This document shows positions 1,467 to 5,755 of a stretch of DNA of 5,755 nucleotides, piece after piece. The stretch lies in IMG/VR virus record IMGVR_UViG_2713896790_000009. The stretch is one strand, 5' to 3'. How positions within the stretch are numbered: position 1 is the first letter of the stretch; every line of letters begins with the position of its first letter. Source of the DNA: a virus (Duplodnaviria > Heunggongvirae > Uroviricota > Caudoviricetes). Under the pieces are notes generated by a model, which was not told where the DNA came from, did not search any database, and saw only the letters and a list, made by a program, of their open reading frames with translations. A program made the position numbers and the translations under genes.

Positions 1467-1984
1467 ATGCGTAAATTATGTGCTGTTATTCTGTCCGCAG
1501 TAGTCTGGCTGGTTGCCGCTGGTACGCCAGCGAGCGCAGCAGAGCATCAGTCCACACTAAGCGCCGGGTATCTTCAGGCCCATACTGATATGCCAGGCAG
1601 TGATGACCTGAAGGGCATTAACGTGAAATACCGTTATGAATTTACGGACACGCTGGGGCTGGTGACGTCATTCAGTTATGCCAATGCCAAAGATGAGCAA
1701 AAAACGCATTACAGCGATACCCGCTGGCATGAAGATTCAGTGCGTAACCGCTGGTTCAGCATGATGGCGGGGCCATCTGTACGCGTGAATGAATGGTTCA
1801 GTGCTTATGCGATGGCAGGTGTGGCTTACAGCCGTGTTTCGACGTTCTCCGGGGATTATCTCCGCGTAACTGACAACAAGGGGAAAACGCACGATGTGCT
1901 GACCGGNNNNNNNNNNNNNNNNNNNNNNNNNNNNNNNNNNNNNNNNNNNNNNNNNNCATCGTGGGTGTCGGTTATAAGTTCTGA
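1467..1984 (+). CDS. lom: Lom outer-membrane protein (Ail/Lom family beta-barrel, lysogenic-conversion moron); contains a 50-N gap at 1907-1956
   Basis: ATG at 1467 preceded by SD GAGAGG (1456-1461). Translation MRKLCAVILSAVVWLVAAGTPASA|AEHQSTLSAGYLQAHTDMPGSDDLKGINVKYRYEFTDTLGLVTSFSYA...YSDTRWHEDSVRNRWFSMMAGPSVRVNEWFSAYAMAGVAYSRVSTFSGDYLRVTDNKGKTHDVLTG closely matches lambda Lom as I recall it, including a signal peptide with an ASA-type cleavage site. After the gap the sequence reads ..IVGVGYKF* (stop TGA 1982-1984), the conserved Lom C-terminus with terminal Phe. The track's ending SWVSVISSD (to 1988) is a gap-induced frame artefact. Confidence 0.85.
1907..1956. other. Run of 50 N (assembly gap or masked bases) inside lom
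   Basis: Exactly 50 N. About 131 nt (44 codons) are expected here from lambda Lom, so the gap is not length-true. Confidence 0.9.
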
Positions 1985-2010
1985 TTAGCCAGGTAACACA
2001 GTGTTATGAC

Positions 2011-2038
2011 AGCCCGCCGGTTCAGGCGGGCTTTTTTG
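2011..2038 (+). terminator. Rho-independent terminator downstream of lom
   Basis: Stem AGCCCGCC (2011-2018) / GGCGGGCT (2025-2032), loop GGTTCA, followed by TTTTTT (2033-2038). Confidence 0.7.
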
Positions 2039-2048
2039 TGGAGTGGAT

Positions 2049-4424
2049 ATGGCAGCAGTAAAAATCTCAGGTGTGCTGAAAGATGGTGCGGGAAAACCAA
2101 TACAGAACTGCACTATTCAACTGAAGGCAAAGCGTAACAGCACCACGGTACTGGTGAACACGGTGGCCTCTGAAAATCCGGATGAAGCCGGGCGTTACAG
2201 CATGGATGTTGAGTATGGTCAGTACAGCGTCACCCTGCTGGTTGAAGGTTTTCCGCCTTCACATGCCGGGACCATTACCGTCTATGAAGGTTCCAGACCA
2301 GGTACGCTGAATGATTTTCTCGGTGCCATGACGGAAGATGATGTCATGCCGGAGGCATTGCGTCGTTTTGAGGAAATGGTGGAAGAAGCGGCACGCAACG
2401 CTGAAGCCGCCTCTCAGAGCGCAGCGGCGGCAAAGAAATCCGAAACTGCAGCGGCATCATCGAAGAACGCGGCGAAAACCTCAGAAACGAATGCAGCTAA
2501 CAGCGCACAGGCGGCAGCGGCCTCGCAGACTGCATCGGCAAACTCCGCAACAGCAGCTAAAAAATCAGAAACCAACGCGAAAAATAGCGAGACAGCCGCA
2601 AAGACGAGCGAAACCAACGCAAAGTCCAGCCAGACGGCAGCGAAGACCAGCGAAACGAATGCCAAAGCCAGTGAAACTGCGGCAAAAAACAGCCAGGTTG
2701 CAGCAGCCCAAAGCGAGAGCGCGGCAGCCGGTTCTGCGACTTCAGCAGCTGGATCAGCAACTGCTACGGCTAACAGCCAGAAAGCTGCGAAGACGAGTGA
2801 AACTAACGCAAAGTCCAGCCAGACGGCAGCGAAGACCAGCGAAACGAATGCCAAAGCCAGTGAAACTGCGGCGAAAAGCAGTCAGGATGCAGCGGCTCAA
2901 AGCGAGAGTGCCGCAGCCAGTTCTGCAAGCGCGGCGGCTGCTTCTGCCACTGCATCAGCTAACAGTCAAAAAGCAGCAAAAACCAGTGAAACCAACGCAA
3001 AGGTGAGCGAAACAGCGGCAGCGAACTCAGCGAAAGCATCGGCAGCAAGCCAGACGGCAGCTAAAGCAAGCGAAGATGCAGCCAGAGAGTACGCAAGCCA
3101 GGCTGCGGAGCCGTATAAATATGTCTTACAGCCGCTGCCTGATGTGTGGATACCATTTAACGATTCGCTGGATATGATTACGGGCTTTTCGCCGTCATAT
3201 AAAAAAATTGTTATTGGTGACGATGAAATAACGATGCCTGGCGACAAGATTGTTAAGTTTAAACGTGCATCGAAAGCAACCTATATTAACAAATCTGGTG
3301 TGCTGACAGAGGCTGCCATTGACGAGCCACGATTTGAACGTGATGGCCTGCTTATTGAGGGGCAAAGAACAAACTACATGCTCAATTCGGAAAGCCCTGC
3401 CAGTTGGGGGCGATCTTCAAATATGGATGTGCCCGAAACAGGGACGGATAATTTTGGTTTTACCTATGGAAAGTTTGTCTGCAACGATTCTCTGATTGGG
3501 CAAACCTCAGCCATTAATATGGCATCAATTGCTGCAACAAAGTCAGTTGATGTCTCAGGCGATAATAAACACGTGACAACCTCATGTCGTTTTAAAACAG
3601 AACTGCAGGTAAGGTTGCGTATCCGGTTTGATAAATATGACGGTAGCGCAACAACTTTTCTTGGTGATGCGTATATTGATACACAAACGCTTGAAATTAA
3701 TATGACAGGCGGTGCTGCCTCAAGGATTACAGCGAGAGTCAGAAAGGACGAAGCTACCGGATGGATTTTTGCAGAGGCAACAATTCAGGCAATTGATGGG
3801 GAGCTAAAAATAGGCTCTCAGATACAGTATTCTCCTAAGCAGAGCGGGGCAACCGTATCTGGTGACTATATTTATCTGGCCACCCCACAAGTAGAAGATG
3901 GGCCTTGTGTATCATCTTTTATTATATCAGGAGCGACGGCGGCGACCCGCGCAAGCGATATAGTTACAGTTCCAATTAAGAATAATCTTTATAATCTTCC
4001 TTTTACGGTTCTTTGTGAGGTACATAAGAACTGGTATAAAACGCCAAATGCAGCGCCACGTGTTTTTGATACCGGCGGTCATCAAACCGGAGCGGCTATT
4101 ATTCTTGGCTTCGGTCGTTCAACAGATTACGACGGATTTCCTTATTGCGATATTGGAGGAGCTAACAGACGGGTAAACGAAAACGCATCGCTTGAAAAAA
4201 TGGTTATGGGGATGCGTGTAAAGTCAGAGCAGTCTACGTGCTCAGTAAGTAACGGGCATATATCCAGCGAAACAAAAACCACATGGTCCTGTATTCAGAA
4301 CACCGCAATTATCCGTATTGGAGGCCAGACTACAGCCGGGTTACGTCATTTATTTGGTCATGTCAGGAATTTCAGAATATGGCACAAGGCATTGACTGAT
4401 GCTCAGGTGGGGGAGTCAATCTAA
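2049..4424 (+). CDS. stf: Side tail fibre protein (Stf-like), mosaic: lambda-Stf-like N-terminal anchor, Ala/Ser/Thr/Lys-rich repetitive shaft, divergent C-terminal putative receptor-binding domain (possibly LamG/concanavalin-like jelly roll)
   Basis: ATG at 2049 with GGAG (2040-2043) upstream; the track's GTG at 2043 is a less likely start. Translation from 2049, MAAVKISGVLKDGAGKPIQNCTIQLKAKRNSTTVLVNTVASENPDEAGRYSMDVEYGQYSVTLLVEGFPPSHAGTITVYEGSRPGTLNDFLGAMTEDD, matches the lambda Stf N-terminus as I recall it. A single uninterrupted ORF ends at TAA 4422-4424. The C-terminal motif FGHVRNFRIWHKALTDAQV resembles the C-terminal strand signature of LamG-like domains; this is from memory and not verified. 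Confidence 0.85.
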   Translation: MAAVKISGVLKDGAGKPIQNCTIQLKAKRNSTTVLVNTVASENPDEAGRYSMDVEYGQYSVTLLVEGFPPSHAGTITVYEGSRPGTLNDFLGAMTEDDVMPEALRRFEEMVEEAARNAEAASQSAAAAKKSETAAASSKNAAKTSETNAANSAQAAAASQTASANSATAAKKSETNAKNSETAAKTSETNAKSSQTAAKTSETNAKASETAAKNSQVAAAQSESAAAGSATSAAGSATATANSQKAAKTSETNAKSSQTAAKTSETNAKASETAAKSSQDAAAQSESAAASSASAAAASATASANSQKAAKTSETNAKVSETAAANSAKASAASQTAAKASEDAAREYASQAAEPYKYVLQPLPDVWIPFNDSLDMITGFSPSYKKIVIGDDEITMPGDKIVKFKRASKATYINKSGVLTEAAIDEPRFERDGLLIEGQRTNYMLNSESPASWGRSSNMDVPETGTDNFGFTYGKFVCNDSLIGQTSAINMASIAATKSVDVSGDNKHVTTSCRFKTELQVRLRIRFDKYDGSATTFLGDAYIDTQTLEINMTGGAASRITARVRKDEATGWIFAEATIQAIDGELKIGSQIQYSPKQSGATVSGDYIYLATPQVEDGPCVSSFIISGATAATRASDIVTVPIKNNLYNLPFTVLCEVHKNWYKTPNAAPRVFDTGGHQTGAAIILGFGRSTDYDGFPYCDIGGANRRVNENASLEKMVMGMRVKSEQSTCSVSNGHISSETKTTWSCIQNTAIIRIGGQTTAGLRHLFGHVRNFRIWHKALTDAQVGESI
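2427..3080 (+). repeat. In-frame coding tandem repeats in the stf shaft region (about 33-bp AAKTSETNAKxSx-type sub-repeats; 189-bp tandem duplication)
   Basis: Copy 1 at about 2600-2788 and copy 2 at about 2789-2977 are offset by exactly 189 bp (63 codons), with a 68-bp perfectly identical core (2616-2683 = 2805-2872). A partial third copy starts near 2978. Encoded motif AAKTSETNAKSSQTAAKTSETNAKASETAAK recurs. Confidence 0.85.
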
Positions 4425-4705
4425 TGAAAGATTTAACACTCAAATTTGCCGACAGGGCCGACTTTTCGGCCTTTATGGATAGCACTGGCTATTATGATGA
4501 CGAGTCGATGCAGGATGATATTCTTATTGACGTGATAGGTAACGTGTACAAAGAAACCGGAGAACTGACTGAAGATGGCGAACCGGTATGTGTTAAGGAA
4601 GACGGATATTTTGTAAACGTGCGCATCATTAATGATTCGCAAATATCGTCATTATTCGATGAATACGTGGTTGCTGTTGAGCATCAACTTCGTGGCTGGA
4701 TGTGA
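4424..4705 (+). CDS. Hypothetical acidic 93-aa protein, translationally coupled to stf; candidate tail-fibre chaperone/assembly factor of unrecognised family
   Basis: ATG at 4424 overlaps the stf stop (TAATG), with GGGGGAG (4410-4416) upstream. ORF MKDLTLKFADRADFSAFMDSTGYYDDESMQDDILIDVIGNVYKETGELTEDGEPVCVKEDGYFVNVRIINDSQISSLFDEYVVAVEHQLRGWM is rich in Asp/Glu. It has no resemblance I can recognise to lambda Tfa; the function is inferred from position only. Confidence 0.6.
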   Translation: MKDLTLKFADRADFSAFMDSTGYYDDESMQDDILIDVIGNVYKETGELTEDGEPVCVKEDGYFVNVRIINDSQISSLFDEYVVAVEHQLRGWM

Positions 4706-4714
4706 GGAAGAAAA

Positions 4715-5755
4715 ATGGCTACATCGACAGTAATTCCTGATGACATCAAAACGCTAAAATCCGACGTTAGCAAATTAAAAAACGATCAAGGAAGCTACGC
4801 AACAAAATTATATGTAGACAGCAAAGATGAAATCGTTGGTGACTGGTCTGCTTCATGGTATCAGCAGGTATTGCCAACTAGCGGAGCTATATTTGGGAGA
4901 AAACTCCGCTCAACTCACAGGACGGCAGGTGTTGAGGATGCGTATTGCGAACTATACCTCAAAAAATGGATAGACAGTCCAGGTAACGCAATGGCGCGCC
5001 TTAACCTGAACGATAACGGGACAAACATTTGCTGGGACTTTACCAACCTTTATGGCGGTACGATGATTTTTCCCGGTGACAGCGGATACCTCAAAATGGG
5101 TAACTGCCTTATGTCATACAGCAAGCGTGGAAGTAACGCGCTTATTAAATTTGATTACACCGACACATTACAGATCAAATATGCCAATCATGGGTCAACC
5201 ATGACATTAAACACACAGGGAACCGCTTATGCTGGTGTTACTGCTCAATTGTGGGGCAACACCAGCCGTCCTGTTGTTTATGAAGTCGGTGTTGATGGTG
5301 GCGCTTATATGTTCTATGCGCAGAAAAATACCGATAACACCTATATGTTAAGCGTTAATGGTGCATGTCATGCCACCGCATTTAACCAGCATTCCGACCG
5401 GGATCTGAAAGACAACATTCAGGTGATCGATAATGCAACCGACCGCATCCGTAAAATGAACGGCTATACATACACGCTTAAAGAAAACGGTATGCCCTAT
5501 GCTGGTGTCATTGCACAGGAAGCTCTGGAAGCAATCCCAGAAGTTGTAGGTTCCGCAATGAAATATCAGGACGGTGCGAGCGGATCGGAAGGTGAAGAAG
5601 GTGAACGTTATTACACAGTAGATTATTCTGGTGTTACTGGCTTGCTTGTTCAGGTAGCCAGAGAGTCAGACGACAGAATAACAGCACTGGAAGAAGAAAA
5701 CGCAGAATTAAGACAAAGATTATCTGCAATTGAGGCGGCGCTTGCGTCTAAATAA
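4715..5755 (+). CDS. Tail fibre/tailspike-like protein with a C-terminal intramolecular-chaperone autoproteolytic domain (peptidase S74-like)
   Basis: ATG at 4715 with SD GAGGAAG (4704-4710); stop TAA 5753-5755. The C-terminal region HSDRDLKDNIQVIDNATDRIRKMNGYTYTL...YAGVIAQEALEAIPEVV...YYTVDYSGVTGLLVQVARE...ITALEEENAELRQRLSAIEAALASK carries the S-D-x-x-x-K-x-N-I signature with Ser227/Lys232 spacing and a terminal predicted coiled coil, as in the endosialidase and T5 L-shaped-fibre chaperone domains. The N-terminal 226 aa are unrecognised. Confidence 0.7.
   Translation: MATSTVIPDDIKTLKSDVSKLKNDQGSYATKLYVDSKDEIVGDWSASWYQQVLPTSGAIFGRKLRSTHRTAGVEDAYCELYLKKWIDSPGNAMARLNLNDNGTNICWDFTNLYGGTMIFPGDSGYLKMGNCLMSYSKRGSNALIKFDYTDTLQIKYANHGSTMTLNTQGTAYAGVTAQLWGNTSRPVVYEVGVDGGAYMFYAQKNTDNTYMLSVNGACHATAFNQHSDRDLKDNIQVIDNATDRIRKMNGYTYTLKENGMPYAGVIAQEALEAIPEVVGSAMKYQDGASGSEGEEGERYYTVDYSGVTGLLVQVARESDDRITALEEENAELRQRLSAIEAALASK

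Follow-up and report, generated by a model that had tools for sequence, protein, structure and literature searches.

A short fibre with a predicted self-cleaving chaperone, probably a subunit of a composite side tail fibre

What is the role of a second, short fibre gene at the right end of a lambdoid tail operon, downstream of the gene for the side tail fibre, Stf? The question is raised by a 5,755-nt stretch of DNA (IMG/VR record IMGVR_UViG_2713896790_000009; hereafter the window, in whose positions all coordinates are given), which closes with a complete open reading frame (ORF) of 346 amino acids (aa). This short-fibre ORF ends in a chaperone domain of the Peptidase_S74 type, occupies the third position of a gene cassette found in unrelated phages, and begins with a motif of 15 residues that is conserved among them. 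We propose that the side tail fibre is probably composite, with the short fibre as an optional distal or branch subunit that is carried by Stf.

The short-fibre ORF is a real coding gene under purifying selection. The ratio of non-synonymous to synonymous substitution rates (dN/dS) lies between 0.11 and 0.40 in pairwise comparisons with diverged alleles (71-95% identical), and the product matches phrog_4563, 'tail fiber protein', over its full length (1-346 of 346); both are direct observations. The gene is found at 99.9% DNA identity in phage Tritos, a prophage of Escherichia coli LF82, as well as in many E. coli genomes, and at 99.2-99.3% identity in 2G7b, HannyBb and PhiR63_1. A query of 1456 bases spanning the 3' end of stf, the gene for a 93-aa protein that lies between stf and the short-fibre ORF, and the short-fibre ORF itself had a match in 1129 of the 5426 complete E. 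coli genomes; in 515 of these the match covered 80% or more of the query. RefSeq names the product 'tail fiber domain-containing protein', and the precomputed Pfam label of its protein cluster is PF13884; the Tritos paper does not discuss tail fibres. The gene is already annotated and very common, the cassette type has already been described in T5-like phages, and the finding itself amounts to a known domain, correctly annotated, in a locus of known type. What is added here is a corrected scissile bond, the N-terminal motif, a cassette that crosses phage families and has an optional third gene, and the exchange of residues 31-110 as a block.

The chaperone domain and its predicted cleavage

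An original prediction, made from the sequence alone, had described the gene as that of a fibre with a C-terminal intramolecular chaperone, and a profile search bears this out. Pfam Peptidase_S74 (PF13884) matches aa 227-278 over profile positions 1-57 of 58, with an E-value of 4.8e-14 and a score of 52.8 bits, the gathering cut-off being 22 bits. Ser227 falls on position 1 of the profile and Lys232 lies five residues further on, within the stretch HSDRDLKDNI (aa 226-235), so that both catalytic residues, and their codons, are where they had been predicted to be (Table 1). Across 19 family members, 38-87% identical overall, Ser227, Asp228 and Lys232 are conserved at 90% or above. The family profile also matches the chaperone part of phage S16 gp37 (6f45, E 3e-8) and that of MyRF (7dc3, E 1.4e-3), and the SDRDLK of the short fibre aligns with the SDRRIK of S16 gp37. 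The domain and its catalytic residues are thus observed directly, while trimerisation and cleavage are what these relationships predict.

The position of the cut is suggested by characterised relatives. T5 pb1 is cut at Thr1263-Ser1264 and the serine departs with the chaperone, as it does in K1F (PMC4690869). In MyRF the cut was placed at P586|S587 by mass spectrometry, S587 being equivalent to S911 of endoNF (PMC8326128). The serine and the lysine are five residues apart throughout, at S911/K916 in endoNF, S587/K592 in MyRF and S1264/K1269 in T5 (PMC8326128, PMC4690869). Since T5 pb1, K1F and MyRF are all cut on the N-terminal side of the catalytic serine, the bond predicted to break here is His226-Ser227, one residue before the Ser227-Asp228 bond named in the original prediction. 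The predicted products hold nonetheless: the short fibre is predicted to cleave itself into a mature part, aa 1-226, with a calculated mass of 24.9 kDa, and a released chaperone, aa 227-346, of 13.2 kDa.

The chaperones of T5 and MyRF are built around a central trimeric coiled coil (PMC4690869, PMC8326128). By analogy, the C-terminal helix modelled at aa 305-344 would be the trimerising coiled coil of the chaperone here.

In PhiR47_1, one of the lambdoid relatives described below, the short-fibre gene (L004:6020-7060) is interrupted by a stop within the chaperone domain (…SDGE*GERYY…), and its annotation consists of two ORFs. Should this phage be viable, it can do without an intact short fibre at least on ECOR13, the host listed for it.

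A cassette and an N-terminal motif common to unrelated phages

The short-fibre gene was found to be the last member of a cassette in which a gene for a big fibre of 650-800 aa is followed by one for a protein of about 92 aa and then by one for a short S74 fibre of 224-574 aa. The window has this order (Table 1), and so do the lambdoid phages Tritos, PhiR49_1 and PhiR47_1, the virulent Nonagvirus ESCO3, the T5-like phages HMD-P4 and IrisVonRoten together with a T5-like metagenomic contig (L006), the T1-like phage JK16 with two T1-like metagenomic contigs (L008 and L009), and the Dhillonvirus KarlBarth, in which the short-fibre gene is represented by two adjacent coding sequences (98 and 196 aa) with no single-frame read-through. 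The short-fibre gene is also present in temperate phages from the human gut. Among 80 IMG/VR loci, a head-bearing stf lies immediately upstream of the short fibre in all 80, and the 93-aa protein has a detected homologue in 66 of them; the remaining 14 are explained by a head of the PhiR47_1 type, whose accompanying small ORF (31% identity in PhiR47_1) falls below the search threshold.

The big fibres have only their C-terminal part of about 430 aa in common, corresponding to aa 363-793 of Stf and referred to here as the head, and within it aa 363-445 are nearly invariant in the alignment. A head of this type is present in 217 phage records, and NCBIfam GTA_spike_fiber matches it at aa 437-637. 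The N-termini differ by lineage, with PF08400 in the lambdoids, another type in the T5-like phages and a third in the T1-like phages, and the T5-like loci carry the LtfC collar gene just 5' of the big fibre. This distribution is consistent with a head that would act as the carrier of the short fibre and that is possibly a receptor-binding domain itself.

Homologues of the 93-aa protein occur at the equivalent position in all five phage groups. The protein gave no Pfam or NCBIfam match, and a homologue search returned 'hypothetical protein' alone. [quoted passage not shown] It may be an assembly factor or an adaptor for the Stf head. Its covariation with the head is mixed: in PhiR47_1 the head and the small protein are both the most diverged, and at other loci a head of 40-44% identity stands beside a small protein of 97-98% identity.

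The third gene of the cassette can be missing. The phages ev017, Lambda_2E9 and PhiR40_1 keep the stf head, the 92-aa gene and a gene for a 97-aa membrane protein, with no S74 gene between, indicating that the short fibre is an optional add-on to the other two. A head of the Stf type and a 92-aa homologue are also found in the rV5-like myovirus CarlMeissner, where the next gene lacks the N-terminal motif, so the pair crosses the boundary between siphoviruses and myoviruses. In this Vequintavirus (L095:824-5595) the head is 45% identical and is encoded at the end of the gene for a 1479-aa lateral tail fibre. Among the IMG/VR loci, heads of 40-100% identity occur next to identical short fibres, which indicates that these two candidate binding modules recombine independently.

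The short fibres themselves have in common only the chaperone and their first 15 residues. The N-terminus had not been recognised in the original prediction; it is a conserved motif with the family pattern MxTxTxIPxDIxxLK, present also in Gp24 of IrisVonRoten. In an alignment of 10 short or distal fibres from the five phage groups (lambdoid, T1-like, T5-like, Nonagvirus and Dhillonvirus), M1, T5, I7, D10, I11, L14 and K15 are invariant, and conservation among these fibres is gone past about residue 16. As the synteny, this conservation pattern is read directly from the genomes; the function of the motif, for which we propose that of a docking peptide, is suggested by it. The motif runs into a predicted helix with 7-residue repeats of the 'TLKSDVS' type, of which homologues have from one to about eight copies, and aa 9-29 would form a short trimeric coiled-coil stalk of variable length.

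Beyond the stalk lies the most variable part of the protein. Among 49 unique lambdoid alleles, column conservation is 0.69-0.86 for aa 31-110, compared with 0.95-0.99 for aa 1-30 and 95-100% for aa 1-30 and aa 227-346 taken together. When the window was compared with another allele (L071), the flanks were found to be identical at synonymous sites and aa 31-110 to be saturated with substitutions, which indicates that this block is exchanged as a unit. Block exchange is typical of receptor-binding domains, and aa 31-110, also the best-predicted region of the AF2 monomer, are a candidate receptor-binding region on that ground. Immediately before the chaperone, positions 176-224 of the family profile, a small knob domain, match the knob repeats of T4 gp34 (4uxe, 5nxf and 5nxh; E 3e-6 to 6.5e-6). 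A Foldseek search of the short-fibre AF2 model against the PDB gave nothing at E ≤ 0.001, the top entry being T4 gp34 at E 0.07 (4uxe). This knob would form the distal tip of the fibre once the chaperone had been cleaved off. A surface glycan is a reasonable guess for the receptor, by analogy with T5 and the BASEL phages.

A mature part of about 226 aa had seemed unusually small, and relatives prove to be smaller still. The PhiR49_1 relative, of 234 aa and with an identical type of N-terminal motif, has its S74 domain from residue 116, and the JK16 relative, of 224 aa, from residue 99; in both, cleavage would leave a mature part of 98-115 aa, less than the chaperone's length of about 120 aa.

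A composite side fibre, its alternatives and the setting of the gene

It is not plausible that a single 15-residue N-terminus should fit into four or five tails that are unrelated to each other, which makes the Stf head and the protein of about 92 aa, the only conserved candidate partners that travel with the short fibre, its likely docking partners. From this we infer attachment to Stf. The course of events would be as follows. The short fibre would be translated from the late tail operon along with stf and the 93-aa gene. The S74 chaperone, through its coiled coil at about aa 305-344, would align three chains in register and template the folding of the preceding beta structure, including the gp34-like knob at about aa 176-224. 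In the correctly folded trimer, the Ser227/Lys232 dyad would cut the His226-Ser227 bond of every chain, and departure of the 13.2-kDa chaperone would expose the distal tip of a mature fibre of 3 x 24.9 kDa. The 15-residue N-terminus and the short coiled coil would dock on the Stf head, possibly via or together with the 93-aa protein, and not on the tail tip. Residues 31-110 and the distal knob would then bind a surface structure that varies, probably a glycan (O-antigen, for example), and the short fibre would thereby add a second specificity to the side fibre.

Could the short fibre instead be an independent third fibre, attached by itself at the tail tip or baseplate, so that J, Stf and the short fibre would be three appendages? 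Its ORF is separate and has a start codon and a Shine-Dalgarno sequence to itself, the protein comes with a trimerising chaperone of its own, and separately anchored multiple fibres do exist, as in ManiWeber, whose Gp114 has its own baseplate anchor (PMC11990801). However, its N-terminus is a 15-residue motif followed by a coiled coil, in which no anchor domain was detected with Pfam, PHROGs or NCBIfam, and this motif is common to five phage groups that differ in their tails and in the anchors of their big fibres. An independent attachment is also difficult to reconcile with a head-bearing big fibre directly upstream in every one of the 80 loci, and we regard it as unlikely. The original prediction of up to three receptor-binding proteins in the virion therefore survives in part. 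Three activities, those of J, the Stf head and the short fibre, are plausible, and a single composite side fibre would carry two of them; the short fibre is probably not a separate third fibre, since it always stands behind a head-bearing big fibre and has the same N-terminus across unrelated tails and anchors.

Two further explanations would deny the short fibre a binding role in the virion. According to the one, the protein is non-structural and serves mainly as a chaperone that folds the Stf head in trans. This would agree with how the gene is annotated in ESCO3 and HMD-P4 ('endosialidase chaperone', 'putative lateral tail fiber chaperone'), with the smallest relatives, whose chaperone of about 120 aa exceeds their mature part of 98-115 aa, and with an stf that here has neither an S74 domain nor a tfa gene next to it. 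Yet characterised S74 chaperones act on their own chain, the head does without an S74 gene in the deposited phage genomes of ev017, Lambda_2E9 and PhiR40_1, and the part preceding the chaperone has what would be expected of a receptor-binding fibre, namely purifying selection, a gp34-like knob and a block-exchanged domain; a role in trans is very unlikely. According to the other, the gene is in decay: it would be the distal end, now orphaned and without function, of an older and longer stf that the new head module displaced. Residues ~90-346 do align to the C-terminal ends of far longer fibre families (phrog_6578, phrog_5668 and others), truncated versions of 254 and 194 aa are common in databases, the PhiR47_1 gene has its internal stop, and both Tritos and LF82 have a tfa remnant downstream, along with a pin gene. 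The full length, the start codon, the Shine-Dalgarno sequence and the motif are nevertheless conserved in hundreds of genomes, the gene is intact in phages deposited as isolates (Tritos, 2G7b, HannyBb, ESCO3, JK16 and IrisVonRoten), dN/dS is 0.11-0.40, and the gene order is kept in virulent phages, which seldom retain dead genes. Decay is hardly credible on this evidence.

Several points weigh against a short fibre carried by Stf. The nearly invariant aa 363-445 of Stf were considered as its socket and rejected, since they are equally conserved in phages without a short fibre (2E9, ev017 and PhiR40_1). The 93-aa protein likewise accompanies the head even where the short fibre is absent, so that it may serve the head alone rather than act as an adaptor for the short fibre. 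The AF2 model of the 346-aa monomer, built from an alignment of 19 sequences, is poor (mean pLDDT 56.6), and its chaperone core (aa 218-283) falls below 50, as expected for an intertwined trimer modelled as a monomer. The published arrangement closest to the one proposed here, in which Gp24 of IrisVonRoten is modelled as a distal fibre on the proximal fibre Gp22 (Humolli et al. 2025, PMC11990801), is itself a prediction, and the proximal fibre is called Gp22 in one place and Gp23 in another (PMC11990801). No proteomic, autocleavage or virion-incorporation experiments on this protein were found in the literature on Tritos and the ECOR prophages.

If the short fibre does ride on Stf, the side fibre of these prophages is two-headed and its two binding modules recombine independently, which would bear on host-range prediction for gut prophages. 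We suggest, much more tentatively, that the motif, the protein of about 92 aa and the Stf-type head might constitute a universal plug, adaptor and socket for small self-cleaving fibres of unrelated siphoviruses. Were this doubtful generalisation true, fibres with a mature part of down to about 100 aa would be interchangeable and could be used for host-range engineering. For phage engineering, the cassette would also be a compact, portable receptor-binding module.

The features of the window are collected in Table 1. It covers the right end of the tail operon, and the N-terminal domain of Stf (PF08400 at aa 5-134, E 7e-67) together with a full-length match to phrog_1419 identifies the big fibre. 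The overlap of stf with the 93-aa gene and the Shine-Dalgarno sequence close by make stf, the 93-aa gene and the short-fibre gene one tightly packed unit, the short-fibre ATG following nine nt past the stop codon of the 93-aa gene. No excess of promoters or terminators was found between the cassette genes in the window.

Table 1. Features of the window in order of position; residue numbers refer to the protein of the gene concerned
Feature	Position	Strand	Basis or remark
J, 3' part	left part of window		Pfam Phage_Tail_Tip and Ig_GpJ_C
lom	1467-1988		Pfam Ail_Lom
Terminator-like hairpin	2011-2032		between lom and stf
stf, side tail fibre of 793 aa	2043..4424	+	lambda-type N-terminal anchor, Ala/Ser-rich repeats, C-terminal head
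Stf head, aa 363-793	3129..4421	+	common to big fibres of unrelated phages
93-aa gene	4424..4705	+	phrog_1361; ATG overlaps stf stop (TAATG)
Shine-Dalgarno sequence GAGGA	4704..4708	+	six nt 5' of ATG 4715; overlaps TGA 4703-4705 of the 93-aa gene
Short-fibre ORF, 346 aa	4715..5755	+	complete; ATG 4715, TAA 5753-5755
N-terminal motif, aa 1-15, MATSTVIPDDIKTLK; putative docking peptide	4715..4759	+	family pattern MxTxTxIPxDIxxLK
Helix, aa 9-29; putative stalk	4739..4801	+	7-residue 'TLKSDVS'-type repeats; AF2, low to moderate confidence
Polymorphic block, aa 31-110	4805..5044	+	predicted beta domain; lowest column conservation; pLDDT blocks 76-83
Knob domain, aa 176-224	5240..5386	+	T4 gp34-like; directly before chaperone
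Predicted scissile bond His226-Ser227	5390..5395	+	homology to T5 pb1 and MyRF cuts; Ser227 (5393-5395) at S74 profile start
Intramolecular chaperone (Peptidase_S74), aa 227-346	5393..5752	+	last 120 residues, 13.2 kDa; predicted release after folding
Lys232, predicted general base of Ser-Lys dyad	5408..5410	+	+5 from Ser227; at least 90% conserved
C-terminal helix, aa 305-344	5627..5746	+	AF2; pLDDT blocks 79-89 for aa 321-346

The surroundings of the cassette offer further observations. Tritos (L001) and LF82 (L002) have stf, 93-aa and short-fibre genes 99.9% identical to those of the window, without lom between J and stf; the presence of lom in the window and its absence there indicate that the tail-fibre module is mosaic relative to its left neighbour. 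The shaft of Stf (2400-3100, aa ~120-350) consists of long degenerate repeats rich in Ala, Ser, Thr and Lys (AAKTSETNAK...), which account for several long but spurious entries in the ORF list, on both strands. An in-frame TAG lies within J at 214-216 (TPGYF*ITATP), where IMG/VR contig L015, identical to the window across 1957-5755, and E. coli AHB5 have CAG. If real, this stop would truncate J at about residue 727 of 1131 and leave this prophage copy with no functional tail tip, a consequence that stop suppression or a sequencing error would lift; given the TAG, the element in this copy may be unable to make functional tails. Two runs of 50 N, at 813-862 in J and 1907-1956 in lom, stand for 79 and 132 real bases in L015, and this comparison identifies the frame change that J seems to undergo past the first run, and likewise the odd end of lom, as masking artefacts, not frameshifts. 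The 3' end of the window, 5755, coincides with the stop codon of the short-fibre ORF, and since contigs L014 and L015 end three bases beyond their match, this edge is probably a predicted prophage boundary and not a biological one.

Just past that edge, relatives encode a hydrophobic protein of 95-97 aa (MDITPFLHALCAVAAQ...; L001:10499-10792 in Tritos, L098:4584-4877 and L097:4584-4871). Its gene follows the short-fibre gene in most of the IMG/VR loci that have downstream sequence, and adjoins the 92-aa gene directly in the phages that are free of a short fibre. It has no Pfam match; judged by its position, we would guess at a membrane protein, perhaps one of superinfection exclusion. The pin gene found 3' in Tritos and LF82 raised the possibility that the short-fibre gene belongs to a Pin-invertible segment. 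This was rejected, there being no crossover-type inverted repeats and the ORF being on the same strand as stf; the only inverted pairs between stf and pin in Tritos were three of 18 nt, 83-94% complementary.

Comparison with known systems

The short fibre resembles the S74 proteins K1F endosialidase, T5 pb1, GA-1 gp12 and MyRF in its S74 match, in the spacing of Ser and Lys, in the C-terminal position of the domain, and in ending with a helix for which a coiled coil is predicted. It differs from them in what precedes the chaperone, which amounts to 226 aa (given the predicted cut) compared with more than 900 in endoNF and 1263 in pb1, and in having a gp34-like knob directly before the chaperone in place of a long triple beta-helix.

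A composite fibre of the kind proposed here also invites comparison with the long tail fibre of T4 (gp34, gp35, gp36 and gp37), in which a small joint protein stands between a proximal and a distal, receptor-binding protein. Folding of the T4 fibre depends on the separate chaperones gp57A and gp38 and involves no S74 domain. The knob at aa 176-224 of the short fibre resembles the knobs of gp34, and no homology was detected between the 93-aa protein and T4 gp35 or gp36.

The lateral fibres of siphoviruses may consist of one, two or more proteins (Maffei et al. 2021), and in DT57C and DT571/2 LtfB is likewise a second, shorter S74 fibre that rides on the first by its extreme N-terminus and confers a second host specificity. 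In DT57C the N-terminus of LtfA inserts into the LtfC collar (PMC10713586). That LtfB sits on LtfA was proposed by the same argument from a conserved N-terminus, with genetic support (Golomidova et al. 2016, PMC4728585), and in cryo-electron microscopy of DT57C no robust density for LtfB was seen at the tail core (Ayala et al. 2023, PMC10713586). Unlike Stf, LtfA has an S74 domain at its own end, and the text of the DT57C papers, as distinct from the genome, mentions no small gene between ltfA and ltfB. When the first 64 aa of the short fibre were compared by tblastn with 50,697 phage records (E up to 1), 54 records matched, and neither DT57C nor phiEco32 was among them. The putative docking peptide would thus belong to a different family from the N-termini (~45 aa) of LtfB and phiEco32 gp15 and resemble LtfB only in the way it works.

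IrisVonRoten (Bas32, Tequintavirus) provides the closest parallel. Its distal fibre Gp24 is larger, with 574 aa and two receptor-binding domains in the published T-shaped fibre compared with 346 aa here, and from the end of the motif to the chaperone region has no detectable similarity to the short fibre. The proximal fibre has an N-terminus of the T5 type and is associated with an LtfC collar, where Stf has the lambda N-terminal domain; its C-terminus contains a galectin-like domain that has been proposed as an extra receptor-binding domain (PMC11990801). The head of Gp22 is 63% identical to that of Stf, Gp23 is an alignable homologue, of 92 aa, of the 93-aa protein, and Gp24 starts with MVTKTVIPTDITKLK, carrying the same motif as the short fibre, and has its S74 chaperone at aa 464-516. 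The genes bas32_0022, bas32_0023 and bas32_0024 stand in the order seen in the window and are homologous, position for position, to stf, the 93-aa gene and the short-fibre ORF.

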